Of a stretch of 64,000 nt of DNA, positions 7,191-32,690 are shown one piece after another. The DNA comes from a phage: NCBI GenBank assembly GCA_012112355.1, contig GCA_012112355.1_3028.1; one strand, given 5' to 3'. The notes beneath the pieces were generated by a model. It was not told the origin of the DNA, searched no databases, and saw only the letters and a program-made list of their open reading frames with translations. Both the position numbers and the translations under genes were made by a program. Each line of letters begins with the position of its first letter. Position 1 is the stretch's first letter.

Positions 7191-9245
7191 CATTTTGAAC
7201 TTTTTAGACATTCCGTTGATGTTAACCAAAGAAGCCAAGATTTGAGAAACTTCGTTTTCCTCTTCTTTTGATTCTTCTACGAGGAATTGATTAAACCCAG
7301 CCATTGGACGAACTTCGCCAGTTTCCATTAGATGATCGCCATCATATACCGATTCTTCTAATTGTTCAGAAGGAGGAACGATTGTGCCTTCGATTAGATA
7401 CTTGTTATAAGCAGTTTCTTTCATCATGTACGTGCTTACTTTATTAATCTTCAACAAAATTCCACGCGGTAGAATAACTTCAGCTTCTGATGGAAATCCT
7501 GATAAATGACCTGGAACGATAACTTTGATTCGCTCAGCCCCTTTAATTACCATACCTACGCTAGTTTCAGCATCTTCATTAGCATATGCAGAATGACTGC
7601 CCATATGCATTAAATCTTCAGCATCAACAGAACCTTCTCCTTCACCAGAAAATACTGCGCCGGAATCATCTAGAGCCATATAGTTTTTACCATGCTCACC
7701 GAAGATATTTGGTTTAAGCGATGTTGATACGAAGTTCTTGAAATAAAACATTTTATTTTCAATATTATGACGTAAAGTTTTAAAGGTAACTTCTTGTCCA
7801 CGATAAAGCGTAGTTCCTGGAGGAAGAACTGAACCTTTGGCAAAGGCAGAATCCATTGTCTCGATGTGTTTAATAGCTCGTTCCATGTATTCTTCACGGG
7901 TAGAATCTGGTTTACCCAAGAGGAACGAGTTCATTTCAACATATGAATCTGCACAATAATCTTCAATTACATCAGACTCAGCCTGAGTTAATCCTTTTGG
8001 AGTTACTTCGGTGCTTGCGTATTCATATGCCCGAGCAGCAGATTCATTAATCAATTTATAAATGCTATTCATGACAAATTGAATAATAGCTACTTTTTCG
8101 TCTGGCGTGGCTTTAGAACCTTTAACTAAATCATTGATAATTTTCTTAATAACATCAAAGCTATTAGAAATATTAATGTCAGCAAGATCGCTTAAAATTT
8201 TATCAGTTTTATAATCAAAGAATTCTTTATTCTTTAAATATTCTTGAGAACCTTGATATGTTATATCGCTCTGCAGCTTGATAGATGGATCGCGTAAACG
8301 TGCATGGGCCAATGCAATATGATTTCGGAAGTTTTCTAGTTCATAATCGTTAGATTTAAAACGAGAAGCACTTCTCATACCACCGATAGCTCCTTTGCTA
8401 AAGTTTGAACCAATCTGAATAACACCAGAGTTCATTGGTCCTTCTGCTTTATATACAGGAACTTTAGATTCAAACTCTTGATATTTCTTGGCAGCGAAGC
8501 TATCACCCTGAAGTGAAGCATCGACAGTAGAATATTGAGCTTGTGCTGCTAATCGACGACTAATTTTAGTTTTCTGAATAACAGCTTGATCCGTGCGCTT
8601 ATCATTTTCTAAGGCAATAGAAGCAGCAACAGCAACAGCTTTAGGAACAGCATTACCTGTTTTAACATCTACATAAACATCACCAACCTTTGATTCAACT
8701 TTTGTGAATAACTCAGTTGAAATAGGAGGTACACCTGGAATGTCTTCTAAATTGGCATTTTTACGGTAAACCATAATATATGCATACTTTTTATCATAAT
8801 CCCAGATTTCCTTTAAAAGAACATATCGACCTGCTCCTTTAGTACGTACTAAACGGTCAGCAATAACTTGCATTTGACGAGCTGCGCCATTTGTTTTACT
8901 TTTTAGTACGCGGAATAAGCATGCATCAATTTTATACTGTTTCATTGTTTGAAGAGCAGTATCAAAAACAGCATTAATGACGCCAATTGGATTTCCACCC
9001 AAGTTTTTAAGCTTAACTAATGATAGTTTCTCATTAACACCTATCATTACGATATGCATCATTTTGTCGCCTGGCTTAACGTTTTTATTCGTATCACCGC
9101 CAGAGGTGTATGTACAAAATCTAAATCCAGGAAGCACGCTTTCTTCACCGGCTTGAATAGCAAAAATTTGTGGTATTTTATGCTTAGGATTTAAGTTAAC
9201 AACCGGCGCCGAAGCGCCGTCAAATAATTCTGTAATAAGTTCCAT
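7188..9245 (-). CDS. Alt-like ADP-ribosyltransferase paralog (second copy)
   Basis: 685 aa; N-terminus MELITELFD and internal blocks shared with adjacent alt; C-terminal Y-R, FVSTSL, EAEVILPRG motifs. Confidence 0.8.
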   Translation of the reverse strand: MELITELFDGASAPVVNLNPKHKIPQIFAIQAGEESVLPGFRFCTYTSGGDTNKNVKPGDKMMHIVMIGVNEKLSLVKLKNLGGNPIGVINAVFDTALQTMKQYKIDACLFRVLKSKTNGAARQMQVIADRLVRTKGAGRYVLLKEIWDYDKKYAYIMVYRKNANLEDIPGVPPISTELFTKVESKVGDVYVDVKTGNAVPKAVAVAASIALENDKRTDQAVIQKTKISRRLAAQAQYSTVDASLQGDSFAAKKYQEFESKVPVYKAEGPMNSGVIQIGSNFSKGAIGGMRSASRFKSNDYELENFRNHIALAHARLRDPSIKLQSDITYQGSQEYLKNKEFFDYKTDKILSDLADINISNSFDVIKKIINDLVKGSKATPDEKVAIIQFVMNSIYKLINESAARAYEYASTEVTPKGLTQAESDVIEDYCADSYVEMNSFLLGKPDSTREEYMERAIKHIETMDSAFAKGSVLPPGTTLYRGQEVTFKTLRHNIENKMFYFKNFVSTSLKPNIFGEHGKNYMALDDSGAVFSGEGEGSVDAEDLMHMGSHSAYANEDAETSVGMVIKGAERIKVIVPGHLSGFPSEAEVILPRGILLKINKVSTYMMKETAYNKYLIEGTIVPPSEQLEESVYDGDHLMETGEVRPMAGFNQFLVEESKEEENEVSQILASLVNINGMSKKFKM

Positions 9246-9248
9246 GAT

Positions 9249-11345
9249 TTATCCTTGAACGAACTTGTAAGGCATGTTTGCAATATCTATGCAAGACGCA
9301 ATAATTCCAAGAGATGATTCTACTTTTTGTTTAACATTTGATGAAACAAATGATGCAAAGTCAACTCTGTCTTCTATTTCAATATCACCTGTCATTGCAA
9401 CTACTTCACCAGTTTCCATTAGACGGTCACCGTCATAAATTACCGATTCGGTGAGTTCTTCGGTGGTCATAACTTCAGCTTGAATGAGTTTTGTATTATT
9501 AGACGTGGTTCCGTCATTATTAGAAGCATCAGTTATTTTATTAACTTTGACCATCAATCCACGTGGTAGAATAACTTCAGCTTCTGTTGCTATTCCGAGA
9601 CTTCCTGGATATACAACATTAACTTTATGAGCTCCATCAATTGCCCATCCTATTTGAACTTTAACGTATTCAGGATTTTCTTTATACGCTCTTATTTCGT
9701 TTGGATTAATAGTTATTCCTTCTTCATTTTTATCAACTGTCAATTCATTACGAGCTTCTGGTTCTAAAAGACCAATACCAGCATGTGTAATTCCAAAACG
9801 TCCAAAAATGATAGGAGTTAAAGAAGTAGATACAAAATTTCTGAAATAGAACACTTTATTTTTAACTAGTGCTTCGTATATAGGAGCAGTCATGCTTTGA
9901 GCACGATAAACTGTAATGCCTTCTGGTATACGGTCACCATTTTCAAAAGCTGAATCTAAGTTATTTATAGCAGATTCAATTTCTTTTTCACTCATTACAT
10001 CATATCGTTCTGGATTGTAACGACCCAAAAGAAGATTATTGATGTCAGTATATCCTGAACCACAATACTCTCTAATGCCGCGCTTTTGTGATGGAGTATA
10101 TTTAGAACCATCACGGGCAATAGTAATATCAATCATTGGACCTGCACCAATTCCAGAAAAACTATAAATCATTCGTTTGAGGAATTTAGTTTTTGCTGCG
10201 TTCCAGGAATTTTTAGTTATTTCTTCCCAGACTTCATCTGGCTGCCCTTTACGAGTTTTATTATGTTTATCAAGCCATTTATCTTTGTATTCTTCAAAGA
10301 ATTTATTAACAGCTGCTGCGTATTTCTCTAAACATTTTATTGAAGTAGTTGGTTCATTTTTAATCGCATTAAGAATTACATCTTTAATTTTTTCAGAAAC
10401 TTCATTAACCTCACTTTTTGAAAAGAATTTATAGTCATAATGAAGTTCATCTGCAGTTCCTTCAGCAATAATTTTTGCTGCCTTAGTTTTAGAAGCCAAT
10501 GAATTAATTCCAAGTTTCATTTCTTCTGCTTCGGGAATTAAAGGAGCGGTAGCAGGTTTATTGAAATTAGCTGCGGTAGATTCATACTTCTGGAATAATT
10601 CACTTTCAAATCTAGAAGATTCTAATGATTGACTTTGTGCAATTGCTCTACGGGAAATTTTAACTTTAACGATTACAGCTTGGTCAGAACGTTTATCATT
10701 TTCTTGCGCAATAGATGCAGCAATTGCCTCATTTTTAGTTACTTGAGCTCCAGTATCTTTATTGATATAAACATCACCGACCTTCGATTCAACTTTAGTA
10801 AAGAGCTCGGTACTAATTTCCGGAACTCCTGGAATGTCTTCTAGTGATACATTTTTGCGATGTATAAGAATATATGCATACTTTTTATCGTAATCCCAGA
10901 GTTCCTTAAGAAGGACGTATCTGCCACCTGAACGACTGCGGATAAGTCTATCAGCAATAAGTTGAATTTGACGAGCTTGACCAGCAGTTTTAGACTTAAG
11001 AATACGAAGCATACAGGCATCAATTTTATACTGACGCATCGTCTGCATCGCAACAGTAAAAACTGAATTGATGTAATTAATTGGGCTTGGACCGAGACCT
11101 TTTAATTTAGCAATTGAACCTTTAGCAGTTAATGTAAAAGGAACAATATGCATCATTTTATCGCCCATCTTTAAATCGCGATTAGTATCACCTCCAGATG
11201 TATAGGTACATAAACGAAAGCCTGGTTGTTCAATTGCGTCATCAACATGAACTGAAAAAATTTGTGGTATTTTCTTCTTTGGATTTAAGTTTGTAATCGG
11301 AAGAGTAGTATCTTCGTCAAATAATTCTGTAATGAGTTCCATCAT
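9249..11345 (-). CDS. alt: ADP-ribosyltransferase Alt (capsid-packaged, injected)
   Basis: 698 aa; N-terminus matches T4 Alt as recalled; R-S-E ART motifs; late promoter upstream. Confidence 0.9.
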   Translation of the reverse strand: MMELITELFDEDTTLPITNLNPKKKIPQIFSVHVDDAIEQPGFRLCTYTSGGDTNRDLKMGDKMMHIVPFTLTAKGSIAKLKGLGPSPINYINSVFTVAMQTMRQYKIDACMLRILKSKTAGQARQIQLIADRLIRSRSGGRYVLLKELWDYDKKYAYILIHRKNVSLEDIPGVPEISTELFTKVESKVGDVYINKDTGAQVTKNEAIAASIAQENDKRSDQAVIVKVKISRRAIAQSQSLESSRFESELFQKYESTAANFNKPATAPLIPEAEEMKLGINSLASKTKAAKIIAEGTADELHYDYKFFSKSEVNEVSEKIKDVILNAIKNEPTTSIKCLEKYAAAVNKFFEEYKDKWLDKHNKTRKGQPDEVWEEITKNSWNAAKTKFLKRMIYSFSGIGAGPMIDITIARDGSKYTPSQKRGIREYCGSGYTDINNLLLGRYNPERYDVMSEKEIESAINNLDSAFENGDRIPEGITVYRAQSMTAPIYEALVKNKVFYFRNFVSTSLTPIIFGRFGITHAGIGLLEPEARNELTVDKNEEGITINPNEIRAYKENPEYVKVQIGWAIDGAHKVNVVYPGSLGIATEAEVILPRGLMVKVNKITDASNNDGTTSNNTKLIQAEVMTTEELTESVIYDGDRLMETGEVVAMTGDIEIEDRVDFASFVSSNVKQKVESSLGIIASCIDIANMPYKFVQG

Positions 11346-15321: not shown

Positions 15322-15687
15322 TTAAATATCAAATTCGTTAAGAACTACATCAAAGATTGCTTCAAGATGCTCAGGTTTAGCTCTGTTACTCAGAATATGA
15401 CGAATCCAAGTTTTAACCAGAAGCTTGCGATTAACGCCATTCCAGCAAGGATGAGTCCCTAAATCGCGTTGACGAAAATCATCATCCAGAGCGATTTTGA
15501 AGTTGGAACCTTCCATTGTGATTGAAACCGTGATACCGTTTTCAAATCGCATATAAACGTAGTTAGGAGTCATATACTGTTCAATTTCGCATACTGATCC
15601 ATTTTGATGTTTCCAAAGGCAAATAGTATCAATAGAACCTGCAATACTATTAGAAACATATTTACGTTCAAAGTTGATGTAGTTCAT
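15322..15687 (-). CDS. hypothetical protein
   Basis: Track ORF starts MENKM; first ATG lies in the conserved RBS GGAGAATAAAATG, so start placed at second ATG. Confidence 0.6.
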   Translation of the reverse strand: MNYINFERKYVSNSIAGSIDTICLWKHQNGSVCEIEQYMTPNYVYMRFENGITVSITMEGSNFKIALDDDFRQRDLGTHPCWNGVNRKLLVKTWIRHILSNRAKPEHLEAIFDVVLNEFDI

Positions 15688-15719
15688 TTTATTCTCCAAG
15701 ATGTTTAATTGCGGTACAG

Positions 15720-15755
15720 GTATATAATATCATATCCTGTACCAAAGTAAACAAT
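15720..15755 (-). promoter_or_regulatory. T4-type early promoter
   Basis: GTTTAC..17..TATTAT followed by TTGGAGAATAAAATG. Confidence 0.65.
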
Positions 15756-16087
15756 TATTTTACTAATTTCCAATGCTGCATGTCAAGTTTACCAACTTTT
15801 TTCATCTTCTCAATTAAGCGTTCGGCACGTTGGCGAGCTGTAACATAATACCATTCACCTAATTCATTTTGTTCAATTTTTCCAACGATTACTGTATTCA
15901 ATTCATAAATCCAACCAGTAAAGAAATTATGAACTTGAATTGTAAAGGTGAAATCTGTTCCCATACCTTCTGTTGTTTCTACTTCAATAATATCACCTTC
16001 AACTGCCATTAAGAACCACATAGTTTCATCATATTTACCATTGAAGCATTTAGTTTTAACTGCAGCGTTCAGATTAATCGTTTTCAT
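15755..16087 (-). CDS. hypothetical protein
   Basis: 110-aa ORF with AAGGAG RBS. Confidence 0.6.
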   Translation of the reverse strand: MKTINLNAAVKTKCFNGKYDETMWFLMAVEGDIIEVETTEGMGTDFTFTIQVHNFFTGWIYELNTVIVGKIEQNELGEWYYVTARQRAERLIEKMKKVGKLDMQHWKLVK

Positions 16088-16107
16088 TTTATTCTCCTTT
16101 GTTTGTG

Positions 16108-16146
16108 TAAGATAATACTATCACAAAGGAACCATACTGTAAACAA
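16108..16146 (-). promoter_or_regulatory. T4-type early promoter
   Basis: GTTTAC plus -10-like TAGTAT, then AAGGAGAATAAAATG. Confidence 0.6.
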
Positions 16147-16173
16147 CTTTATGCAATCTTTGGAAAATAAAAA

Positions 16174-16192
16174 AGGACTCCCGAAGGAGTCC
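16174..16192 (-). terminator. rho-independent terminator
   Basis: GGACTCC-CGAA/TTCG-GGAGTCC hairpin followed by T-run on minus strand. Confidence 0.65.
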
Positions 16193-16197
16193 TCAAC

Positions 16198-16374
16198 TTA
16201 TGCTTTCTGCTTACCAAAACGAGAAGCATCATCTCGAAGAACCGCACGTGCTCGGCGCATGATCTTCTCAACAGTTTGATTGATACGAGAGTTCGACCCA
16301 CGCTTGTAGCCAGCGCGTTTAGAATCACCAACTTTCTTTTCAACTGCTTTCTTTGCTTTAACTTGTTTTGCCAT
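16198..16374 (-). CDS. small highly basic protein (T4 30.9 position)
   Basis: Internal start MAKQVKAKKAVEKK.. of track ORF 16198..16416; very Lys/Arg rich. Confidence 0.5.
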   Translation of the reverse strand: MAKQVKAKKAVEKKVGDSKRAGYKRGSNSRINQTVEKIMRRARAVLRDDASRFGKQKA

Positions 16375-16619
16375 TATAAATTCTCTTTTAAATGAAAATG
16401 CAGGACTTATTGGCATTGCCTGCGCAAGCCCTCAAGGGGAACATAGGTTTTTGGATATTTAACGACCAGGATAACCATAAACCCGTCATCATTCACATTC
16501 AAGAGGTACACCGTAAAACTGCCGGGGTCTTAAAACTATAATGATTCGCAAATCATTAATCAGACAGTTCGACGGCTCCTCGATTTTAGCTCACACTAAG
16601 GCAGTGAATCTCCAATAAA

Positions 16620-16868
16620 TTACTTCAATGTTACCACAAAGTGACGAACTGCTTTTCGTGCAGCAGAAGCCAGAGGCTTAGCATACTTAAGTTCATCTTT
16701 TTCCTGGAGCTCAGCAGCTAATGCAGTTTGAGCAGGATTTAGATGTTTGAAATAACGCAGGATTTCAAGAGCTTCGGCTTCAACATCAATAGAAGCGCCA
16801 TAGTTTTCGTGACCATTATTCCATGCGTTTCGTTGCAGTTCAAGAGCGTGTTGTAATTGTTTAATCAT
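16620..16868 (-). CDS. rIII: lysis inhibition accessory protein RIII
   Basis: 82 aa, size and position as T4 rIII. Confidence 0.85.
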   Translation of the reverse strand: MIKQLQHALELQRNAWNNGHENYGASIDVEAEALEILRYFKHLNPAQTALAAELQEKDELKYAKPLASAARKAVRHFVVTLK

Positions 16869-17015
16869 TTAAAAATTCTCGTTAGAGATTAAAACTCGGT
16901 AGTCACGTTCTTCTGAATTTCATCTTCTTTCGACAGATCTCTCAGTTGTAGACTACCACATAGAATTGTTCGGTTAACTTATTATTCCGACACCCAATTC
17001 ATATTATTATTTATA

Positions 17016-17351
17016 TCACTTATAAAGACACGGAATAGCTTTATAGTGACAGGTAACAAATTTTTGTTTAATTTCTTTTGGCTGCTTAAGACCCAGAGCT
17101 ACAAAAGGATGCGGAACATTTCGAATTTGACCAACTGGAAGAGAAGTCAAATCACCAACTTCGCAGAAACCTTCAGGAACATCAGGACCGACAGAGTGAA
17201 CTACACATAGTTCAGGAACTTCACCTTGAACACGTTTACCGATAATAAGTCCTGATTCTGTAACTTCTTCATCACCGGCTTGTGCAGGTTCAGAAACTAA
17301 AATAACATATTCACCGACAGCACGAATTGGTAGCTGTTGTACTTCAGACAT
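17016..17351 (-). CDS. 31: co-chaperonin gp31 (GroES-like)
   Basis: 111 aa, matches T4 gp31 as recalled. Confidence 0.95.
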
Positions 17352-17364
17352 CGTTTTTCCTTTT

Positions 17365-17400
17365 TGTTAACAGATGAATTAATAATAACAAATAATTCTT
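17365..17400 (-). promoter_or_regulatory. T4 middle promoter (MotA box TGCTTTA plus -10 TATTAT) for gene 31
   Basis: AAATGCTTTAA with a -10-like hexamer about 12 nt downstream. Confidence 0.5.
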
Positions 17401-17407
17401 AAAGCAT

Positions 17408-17716
17408 TTATTTACCAATAAATTGGAGTAAATGCTCAACTTTCATACCATTAACGGAAATCAATTTGTCAATAGAAAAACCTCGCCATGCACCAAGCTC
17501 AACATCAAATACTGGAATCATGTCAGTAGATTCTTTCCGAGTAGATTCAGTCAATTTACCAGTTTGCATGGTTGGCATAAAGTCTGCATCACGAGTACCT
17601 TTCATAGTACGAATAGTACCATCAGACTTTTCAAAAACTACGTTTGAAATACCCATGGACAATTTAGTTTTCAAAATTTCACGAATTGCTACTTTTTGTT
17701 CAGTCGTCAATTTCAT
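17408..17716 (-). CDS. hypothetical protein (T4 31.1 position)
   Basis: 102-aa ORF. Confidence 0.65.
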   Translation of the reverse strand: MKLTTEQKVAIREILKTKLSMGISNVVFEKSDGTIRTMKGTRDADFMPTMQTGKLTESTRKESTDMIPVFDVELGAWRGFSIDKLISVNGMKVEHLLQFIGK

Positions 17717-32588: not shown

Positions 32589-32690
32589 TTTTATTTCCTT
32601 TTTTAATTTAATTAACAGTTGGTGCTATGACGATGTATGACCTCATAGCTGGTCAGTGAGATAATTATAATTTATTTATAATAAGCAATT
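32589..32690 (-). promoter_or_regulatory. gene 32 leader: MotA-box middle promoter, late promoter TATAAATA, long 5' UTR (site of the gp32 translational operator in T4)
   Basis: TTGCTTAT box and TATAAATA on minus strand about 90 nt upstream of ATG. Confidence 0.5.

Follow-up and report, generated by a model that had tools for sequence, protein, structure and literature searches.

A candidate array of mobile, structured RNA modules in the rIII–30.9 spacer of a T4-type phage

The spacer between rIII and 30.9 in a T4-type (Tequatrovirus) genome is probably an array of co-transcribed, horizontally mobile accessory non-coding RNA modules, designated A1, A2, B1, K and B2, carried on the sense strand; this interpretation is given a probability of about 0.6. 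The window analysed is a 64,000-nucleotide (nt) stretch of phage DNA (contig GCA_012112355.1_3028.1 of GenBank assembly GCA_012112355.1). In it the whole spacer occupies positions 16375-16619 (245 nt), and the modules lie on the minus strand, which is the messenger RNA (mRNA) sense. A first-pass annotation, made from the sequence alone, had singled out the interval as a gap in the open reading frames (ORFs) with a short inverted repeat, and had offered a structured RNA, a processing site or a gene remnant as explanations. The feature is real and non-random, and the object is larger and more unusual than that repeat. The elements are very likely sense-strand RNA structures under selection for base pairing: non-coding, modular, horizontally mobile and dispensable in some lineages.

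Module A2 (16495..16584) is a 90-nt rod of four stacked helices with 25 base pairs (bp). The helices are P1 (GAGG/CCUC, 16578-16581 with 16503-16506), P2 (GCCGU/ACGGU), P3 (GAACUGUC/GGCAGUUU) and P4 (UAAUGAUU/AAUCAUUA). A2 is the sole segment of the spacer with unusual folding stability, having a minimum free energy (MFE) of -25.9 kcal/mol and a z score of -2.68 (3/200 shuffles); the entire spacer, folded together, is not unusually stable (z = -1.57). P4 forms the tip of the rod (16539..16558), with 8 bp and the RNA loop UGCG. On the plus strand it reads TAATGATT-CGCA-AATCATTA. This is the inverted repeat that had been described as 7 bp around a 5-nt loop, and its actual dimensions are 8 bp and 4 nt. 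Taken alone the repeat is only mildly unusual, since 42 of 2000 dinucleotide shuffles contain a perfect repeat of 8 bp or more, and 170 of 2000 contain one of 7 bp or more. As the apical helix of a 25-bp rod with compensatory changes, beside a pseudoknot that also covaries, it supports the earlier proposal of a structured RNA.

Compensatory changes have been found in both A2 and B1 by the alignment across relatives that the first-pass annotation had proposed. For A2, 17 distinct sequences are available. Paired states account for 99.0% of the cells of the alignment, compared with 28-59% when the partners are slid, and double-sided changes occur in 8 of the 25 pairs (24 cells); none of 500 shuffles reached the observed values. 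In P4, half of the 8 pairs are changed on both sides, e.g., AUGAUU/AAUCAU to UCGAUU/AAUCGG. Two of the A2 pairs are invariably G·U, and a third is frequently U·G. On the opposite strand these would be C·A-type mismatches, so the structure belongs to the sense strand. The distal part can be lost or found by itself. P3 and P4 are missing in PP01, Ozark and locus L039 (PP01 and Ozark retain just the base of A2), and they occur alone upstream of rIII, in the rIII leader, in Klebsiella phage pzk-kv8, so that A2 comprises two modules, one nested in the other. A covariance model of A2 (R2) detects one copy in the 64-kb window.

B1 (16438..16492) is an H-type pseudoknot of roughly 50 nt. Stem 1 joins GAC (16485-16487) to GUC (16464-16466), with an inner GG/CC, and stem 2 joins the loop sequence GGUU (16473-16476) to AACC (16446-16449); the linker between the stems, CGUUAAAUAUCCAAAA, is conserved. 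In an alignment of 26 sequences, the stem 1 pair 7-29 is UA in 14, AU in 11 and GC in one, and pair 8-28 is CG in 17, GC in six and UA in three, neither ever being unpaired. The core pair of stem 2 is GC in 18, AU in five and GU in three. Overall, 79% of cells are paired versus at most 61% when the partners are slid, and the covariation score is 0.304 versus at most 0.154. In other genera stem 2 extends to 7-9 bp, as in GUUGGUU/AACCAAC, CAAGGUU/AAUCUUG, UUGUGAG/CUCACAA and UUAGUAGUU/AACUACUAA. The covariance model of B1 (R1) finds one copy in the window, at 64.8 bits.

Comparison of relatives shows a mosaic. Forty loci reached through the rIII protein, together with other loci, yield 41 distinct spacers of 120-430 nt (of the L numbers used here, L002 is SHFML-26, L003 is T6, L113 a Phapecoctavirus, L116 a Vibrio phage and L119 phi92). 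Their vocabulary comprises A1, A2, B1, K, a 45-nt module C and a 137-nt module X, plus one of the hairpins B2, D, E and C' ahead of the ribosome-binding site of 30.9. Alignment of close relatives resolves into clean blocks of presence and absence. For example, the first 125 nt (A1 and A2) are absent from RB32, T6 has 45 extra nt (module C) at the A2/B1 junction, and SHFML-26 has 154 extra nt (module X) at the same junction. The order of modules varies as well: A1-A2-B1-K-B2 in the window, B1-A1-X-K-D in L032, K-B1-C in L027 and X-B1-K-D in L030. In distant T4-like phages there is no spacer, and rIII abuts 30.9 or another gene. The modules are separable units that relatives have gained, lost, truncated, nested and reordered, and they are independent of any particular neighbouring gene.

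The spacer is 100% identical to that of Yersinia phage phiD1 and about 99% identical to that of T4, where it is the same unannotated interval (NC_000866, 130541-130784). The surrounding 801 bases share 99% identity with many T-even phages, and the spacer itself matches 771 phage records, in one place per record. In comparisons with relatives of the Dhaka and Mosigvirus types, identity is 72-84% over the flanking genes (61-69% at their third codon positions); the corresponding values are 96-97% for A2, 88-92% for B1 and 88-91% for K and B2 together. On these alignments the modules are conserved beyond the flanking genes, which may reflect either purifying selection or active exchange.

The modules are also found in unrelated phages, often among genes for transfer RNA (tRNA). 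In Phapecoctavirus phiWec188, the interval separating tRNA-Gln from tRNA-Pro is taken up by a diverged A1-A2-C (77% identity; 84.5 bits with R2); this Phapecoctavirus cassette recurs, with an identity of at least 90%, in about 80 records. An unrelated 55-kb contig, L052, has B1 as its tRNA-Asp/tRNA-Pro spacer (61 bits, E = 2e-14). This contig is not T4-like and has candidate portal- and terminase-like ORFs, recognised by eye only. In phi92-type Justusliebigviruses, A1-A2-B1-K-B2 is joined to the 3' portion of rIII and stands between tRNA-Gly and tRNA-Gln. This insert of 332 bp is circularly permuted relative to T4 (the gap, then the rIII 3' part), with a direct repeat of 13 nt, TTTATTGGAGATT, on either side; in insert-free relatives, of which PaulScherrer is one, this repeat already exists at the 5' end of tRNA-Gln. 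By its sequence it looks like the integration of a small circular recombination product. In Vibrio phage 3.058.O (L116, about 670-1125), the 450 nt of non-coding sequence that precede the terminase gene contain an A1-type hairpin, identical to the Phapecoctavirus copy at 31 of 32 positions. A scan of viral contigs for the B1 pattern led back largely to the T4-like contigs already collected and added one case in a tRNA cluster; among metagenomes the matches were mostly chance ones in coding DNA.

Several observations accompany these occurrences. Close to the tRNA cluster of L052, a 473-residue protein is encoded at 8936-10357 (minus strand); it is suspected from its sequence to be a vWA/TROVE-like (Ro-type) RNA-binding protein. 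The phi92 insert is located at 335-665 of L119 and 8380-8713 of L056 and takes in the final 40 rIII codons, which are annotated as gp113 'rIII'. In some T4-like records the spacer is labelled '1,4-alpha-glucan branching enzyme', and in others ORFs of 34-62 codons are called, which are annotation artefacts. Four records of about 146 kb filed as 'Campylobacter phage' (A145, A150, C3 and A110a) contain the phi92-type cassette (96.7% identity); they look like coliphages filed under a wrong name.

Three further elements belong to the same vocabulary. Module X is a predicted multi-helix RNA of 135-144 nt, which in some spacers separates A2 from B1 and in others lies at another place; the window is without it. 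Examples are SHFML-26 (L002, about 1012-1150), L030, L032 and L070. It is single-copy in 407 records of phages of Escherichia, Klebsiella, Enterobacter and Citrobacter and of other T4-like phages; compensatory double changes occur in 13 of its 39 predicted pairs, and it has no match in Rfam. Module C is a 45-nt hairpin with CAGA/UCUG as its inner stem, for which other phages have CAGC/GCUG. T2 and T6 have the module, T4 and the window do not, and it also occurs in the Phapecoctavirus tRNA-cluster cassette (T6, L003, about 1008-1052; L113, about 705-760; also L027, L035 and L047). Module D does occur in the window, at 16898-16957 on the minus strand, in the intergenic region between gene 31 and rIII. 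It is a three-tier hairpin with an outer GGUAGUC...GACUACC, a middle CUGA/UCAG and an inner AUCU-G-UC[GAAA]GA-AGAU closed by a GNRA-type loop. Its folding z score is -1.99, and covariation across genera is seen in all three tiers (GGGAGC/GCUCCC, CCGA/UCGG and AACU/AGUU). In the window D stands directly before the rIII ribosome-binding site; in Karam- and Slopek-type relatives it stands before that of 30.9.

The remaining modules of the spacer are smaller. A1 (16584..16619) begins immediately 3' of the rIII stop codon. It is a tentative hairpin, UUCAC/9-nt loop/GUGAG at about 16590-16608, followed by CUAAAA, and two compensatory changes have been recognised in it by eye (A-U to G-C in Mosigvirus-type phages, C-G to U-A in L032). 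K (16425..16442) is the motif GUUCCCCUUGAGGGCUUG, of the general form GUACCCUUNGAGGRCUUG, with a predicted mini-hairpin of 3-4 bp within it. It is kept across genera whose neighbouring modules differ, and it lies directly 3' of the rIII stop codon in L027, L029, L035 and L047. B2 (16400..16423) is a hairpin with the stem GCAGG/CCUGC and the 14-nt loop CAAUGCCAAUAAGU; the stem is replaced by GAACUGG/CCAGUUC in L024 and L039, and in other genera unrelated stable hairpins (D, E and C') fill its position before the 30.9 ribosome-binding site. In the MFE fold, a pairing between K and the loop competes with B2. After B2 comes the A/U-rich initiation region of 30.9 (16375..16399), AUUUUCAUUUAAAAGAGAAUUUAUA, in which a predicted small hairpin, UUUUCA/AGAGAA, masks the Shine-Dalgarno-like GAGA of 30.9. 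Since a stable hairpin is always present before 30.9 and the leader hairpin covers GAGA, B2 and the leader probably act in cis.

The array lies in a run of genes on the minus strand: gene 31 (17016-17351), rIII (16620..16868, stop TAA at 16620-16622), 30.9 (16198-16374, start ATG at 16372-16374) and 30.8 (15755-16087). An upstream in-frame ATG at 16416 would give 30.9 a 72-residue form. Its conservation is limited to Tequatrovirus and a 1-nt indel breaks the frame in Mosigvirus, so the start at 16374, for a protein of 58 residues, stands. The gap had been called the longest ORF-free stretch of the minus-strand early region. This is borne out in the minus-strand block at about 7-35 kb, where, with ATG-initiated ORFs of at least 45 codons considered, the stretch in the spacer measures 203 nt (the ATG at 16416 being counted) and the runner-up 147 nt. 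The spacer had also been called more GC-rich than its flanks. At 40.0% it is so relative to the window (35.7%) and the neighbouring intergenic regions (32-34%), and not relative to the flanking genes rIII (41.0%) and 30.9 (44.1%). The terminator already noted, which lies after 30.9, is present as a terminator-like hairpin at 16173-16194, with a 9-bp stem followed by TTTTTATTTT. Within 16375-16619, no promoter- or terminator-like site was found in a scan of 15700-17400; a MotA-box middle promoter considered at GGGCTTG was discarded by eye for want of an acceptable -10 element. The modules, having neither promoter nor terminator of their own, would be made within a longer transcript. One source is suggested by TATAAATA at 17008-17015 (minus strand), directly after the gene 31 stop, which is the T4 late-promoter consensus. 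Late transcripts would then start just upstream of module D, traverse rIII and reach the spacer.

Among the known systems, B1 can be compared with the pistol ribozyme, whose architecture (PMC4604425) and env25 sequence (PMC6101554) have been published. Both are phage-associated and have a 5-bp first hairpin with its loop pseudoknotted to a segment about 15-17 nt downstream, and the string CACGUUAAAUA directly follows the first hairpin (env25 CCACGUUAAAUAG, B1 of L024 UCCACGUUAAAUG). B1 differs in having neither the P2/P3 substrate domain nor a fixed-length junction with the GU cleavage site in it. B1 is followed on its 3' side by K in the window, by A1 in L032, by tRNA-Pro in L052 and by unrelated sequence in L027, with no conserved P2/P3 partner. 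The Rfam pistol model gave no match at E <= 10 in the 271-nt interval 16360-16630, in 15500-17500 or in the L024 and L032 spacers. The identification of B1 as a pistol ribozyme was dropped; the likeness is one of fold only, with P2, P3 and the cleavage strand absent and the Rfam model failing.

PeSL (promoter-early stem-loop) regulatory cassettes consist of a stem-loop terminator and a strong early sigma-70-type promoter and are present in many copies per T4-type genome (Comeau 2014, PMC4122927). Like the spacer modules, they are small, non-coding, mobile, stem-loop-bearing cassettes of T4-like genomes that mark sites of insertion and deletion. In contrast to them, the spacer is without a promoter- or terminator-like site, the nearest terminator being that at 16173-16194, and its modules are single-copy with complex folds (a four-helix rod, a pseudoknot). 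B2 itself has a 5-bp stem, a 14-nt loop and an interrupted U-tract, which sets it apart from a terminator. PeSL mini-circles were reportedly described by Arbiol et al. in 2010, and the phi92 insert has the shape expected from such an intermediate. Another parallel is with T4 rnaC and rnaD (species 1 and 2), which are structured phage RNAs of a tRNA cluster made in a longer transcript. Unlike these, the modules of T4-type phages lie within an mRNA operon and have no sequence similarity to either, and any discrete RNAs from them are putative.

T4 has translational operators and inhibitory leaders, among them the gene 32 pseudoknot and the hairpins of e, soc, 49 and I-TevI (PMC3014915). The spacer resembles them in placing a pseudoknot and hairpins upstream of an A/U-rich initiation region, with a predicted hairpin over the Shine-Dalgarno-like sequence of 30.9. 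It departs from them in that the B1 model misses the gene 32 leader, present in the window at about 32589-32688, the modules also occur away from ribosome-binding sites, and 30.9 has no known repressor protein. RegB sites were considered and rejected: the GGAG in GGAGAUUCACU (A1) and in GGAGCCGUCGA (A2) misfits the consensus GG*AGRAYARAA (PMC3014915), and in A2 the first GG is paired in P1. DUF2815 RNA (RF03084) is also phage-associated and shares the layout of B2: the 3' part of the hairpin loop contains AAGUCC, and an A-rich ribosome-binding site and AUG come next. Its match at 16372-16432 (minus strand) scores 14.5 bits (E = 4.9) against a gathering score of 41.2, and the better-looking B2 variant of L024 gives no match; the resemblance is probably chance or at most remote.

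A gene remnant, either of a protein-coding gene or of a tRNA, was among the explanations first offered, and it can now be regarded as very improbable. Depositors do annotate short ORFs of 34, 62 or 72 codons in the spacer, and the first 8 nt of A1 and a few more bases are common to phage tRNA-Gln. Against this, no reading frame is conserved, the spacer of the window has several stop codons in all six frames, nearly all of the 41 variants have at least two per frame on both strands, and close relatives are separated by single-base, frame-breaking indels. Spacer ORFs have no match in Pfam or PHROGs, and none of the 41 related loci has a gene at the rIII–30.9 position. ARAGORN found no tRNA genes in the window or in L001-L003, and local alignments of the spacer to 15 phage tRNAs are at chance level (z <= 1.3). 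A match to a catalogued RNA fares no better. The Rfam search that had been proposed, with the covariance models of Rfam 15 run on the window and on related spacers, gave only sub-threshold, chance-level matches; one of these, Atu_C8 at 16159-16242, is driven by the 30.9 terminator and was rejected. There is no match to the spacer by blastn in 5,426 E. coli genomes. A dispersed repeat family was also discarded, the modules being single-copy by both blastn-short and covariance model, as was a reading of A1 as a type I-F CRISPR repeat (TTCACTGCC...GCTAAGAAA), in which the register of the hairpin differs and for which no Rfam CRISPR-DR match was found. As far as these sequence searches reach, the fold families of the spacer modules are new.

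Two other explanations accept the structures and assign them a different role. In one, they are purely cis-acting elements of the mRNA that protect the 3' end of rIII and/or serve as processing sites for the ribonucleases (RNases) E, III or RegB, with no function in trans; as part of this, rIII would be uncoupled from 30.9, and B2 with the leader would set the translation of 30.9. The constant sense orientation of the modules inside the operon fits this explanation, as does the lack of promoter- and terminator-like sites. It would also account for some stable hairpin, whatever its identity, always standing just upstream of the 30.9 ribosome-binding site, for D preceding the ribosome-binding site of rIII in the window and of 30.9 in other genera, and for the predicted masking of GAGA. 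It does not readily account for A1, A2, B1 and C between tRNA genes and in other contexts that have no downstream gene in common. Because rIII abuts 30.9 in some T4-like phages and RB32 is without A1 and A2, the modules are needed by neither rIII nor 30.9. Loops and linkers are conserved far beyond the needs of a stabilising hairpin, and the two GGAG motifs, one of them base-paired, do not suit RegB. A purely cis role can be entertained only tentatively, and a trans-acting accessory RNA appears somewhat more likely. The other explanation is that the modules are selfish or hitch-hiking DNA cassettes, functionless for the phage and spread between co-infecting phages by recombination through microhomology or mini-circles. 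The phi92-type insert, circularly permuted and bordered by TTTATTGGAGATT, is the pattern expected from a small circular intermediate, and presence or absence is polymorphic among close relatives. Yet the compensatory changes accept G·U on just one of the two strands, which points to selection on RNA pairing, not on DNA. The modules are moreover single-copy per genome and undispersed, they are conserved above the flanking coding sequence, and a copy diverged to 77% identity is kept in about 80 Phapecoctavirus-type records. Functionless passengers are therefore quite unlikely, if less so than a gene remnant.

The preferred interpretation, that of accessory RNA modules, would most likely have them act through their folds as RNA domains. 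Host RNases could release them from the transcript as stable small RNAs; between tRNAs, such release would have to come from tRNA processing. The conservation of loops and linkers suggests that they are recognised by a partner which different hosts share, and the released modules may bind a factor that enterobacterial and related hosts have in common. B2 and the A/U-rich leader would work in cis on translation of 30.9 or on stability of the transcript. The modules would in this case be dispensable accessories and not core regulators of the adjoining genes. A more specific proposal is possible, though it should be held with considerable doubt: in T-even phages, the spacer may be a landing pad for a new set of mobile phage non-coding RNA genes (A2, the pistol-like B1, X, C and D) that move between virulent phage families, often into tRNA operons, and are excised as stable small RNAs acting in trans on a conserved host target. 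They could, e.g., be aptamers or ribozymes, or act against an RNase or an RNA-directed defence as inhibitors or decoys.

A number of points weigh against the interpretation as an array of accessory RNA modules. Structural support for A1, K and B2 is weak in the folding models: A1 has no thermodynamic signal (z = 0.07), and the K and B2 segment folded in one piece (16375-16441) has z = -0.75. In the window, stem 2 of B1 is only 4 bp, GGUU/AACC. The effective sequence number of the A2 model is 1.15, and the covariation counts come from related sequences, in which a single inherited change is tallied repeatedly. The high identity of A2 may be due partly to recent recombination rather than constraint, and tolerance of non-coding insertions could explain the presence of modules in tRNA clusters. 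No description of the spacer was found in a T4 omics paper, in two T4 reviews of 2010 or in the paper on RIII, nor was a later one found; the expression of rIII and 30.9 is the subject of Driukas & Nivinskas 2003, cited in this literature. Some of the modules may have anonymous entries in a catalogue published in 2023 (PMC10690425), which lists about 10,000 candidate structured RNAs of viruses.

T4 is the best-studied virulent phage. According to a 2010 review, it had at that time no characterised riboswitch or trans-acting RNA, and if the landing-pad proposal is true, the modules would be its first functional trans-acting RNAs besides tRNAs. Each spacer module is a concrete candidate for testing by deletion, with a defined (predicted) fold. 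Natural knock-outs exist in RB32 (no A1 or A2), PP01 (no A2 tip) and T4 (no X or C), and natural transplants exist in the tRNA clusters of other phage families. Should the modules be merely elements of stability or processing, a conserved and unannotated part of the T4 map would still be explained. If they are functional RNAs, they would represent new RNA families in hundreds of genomes of therapeutic-type coliphages and Klebsiella phages, and phages would be swapping RNA-structure cassettes in the way that they swap genes.

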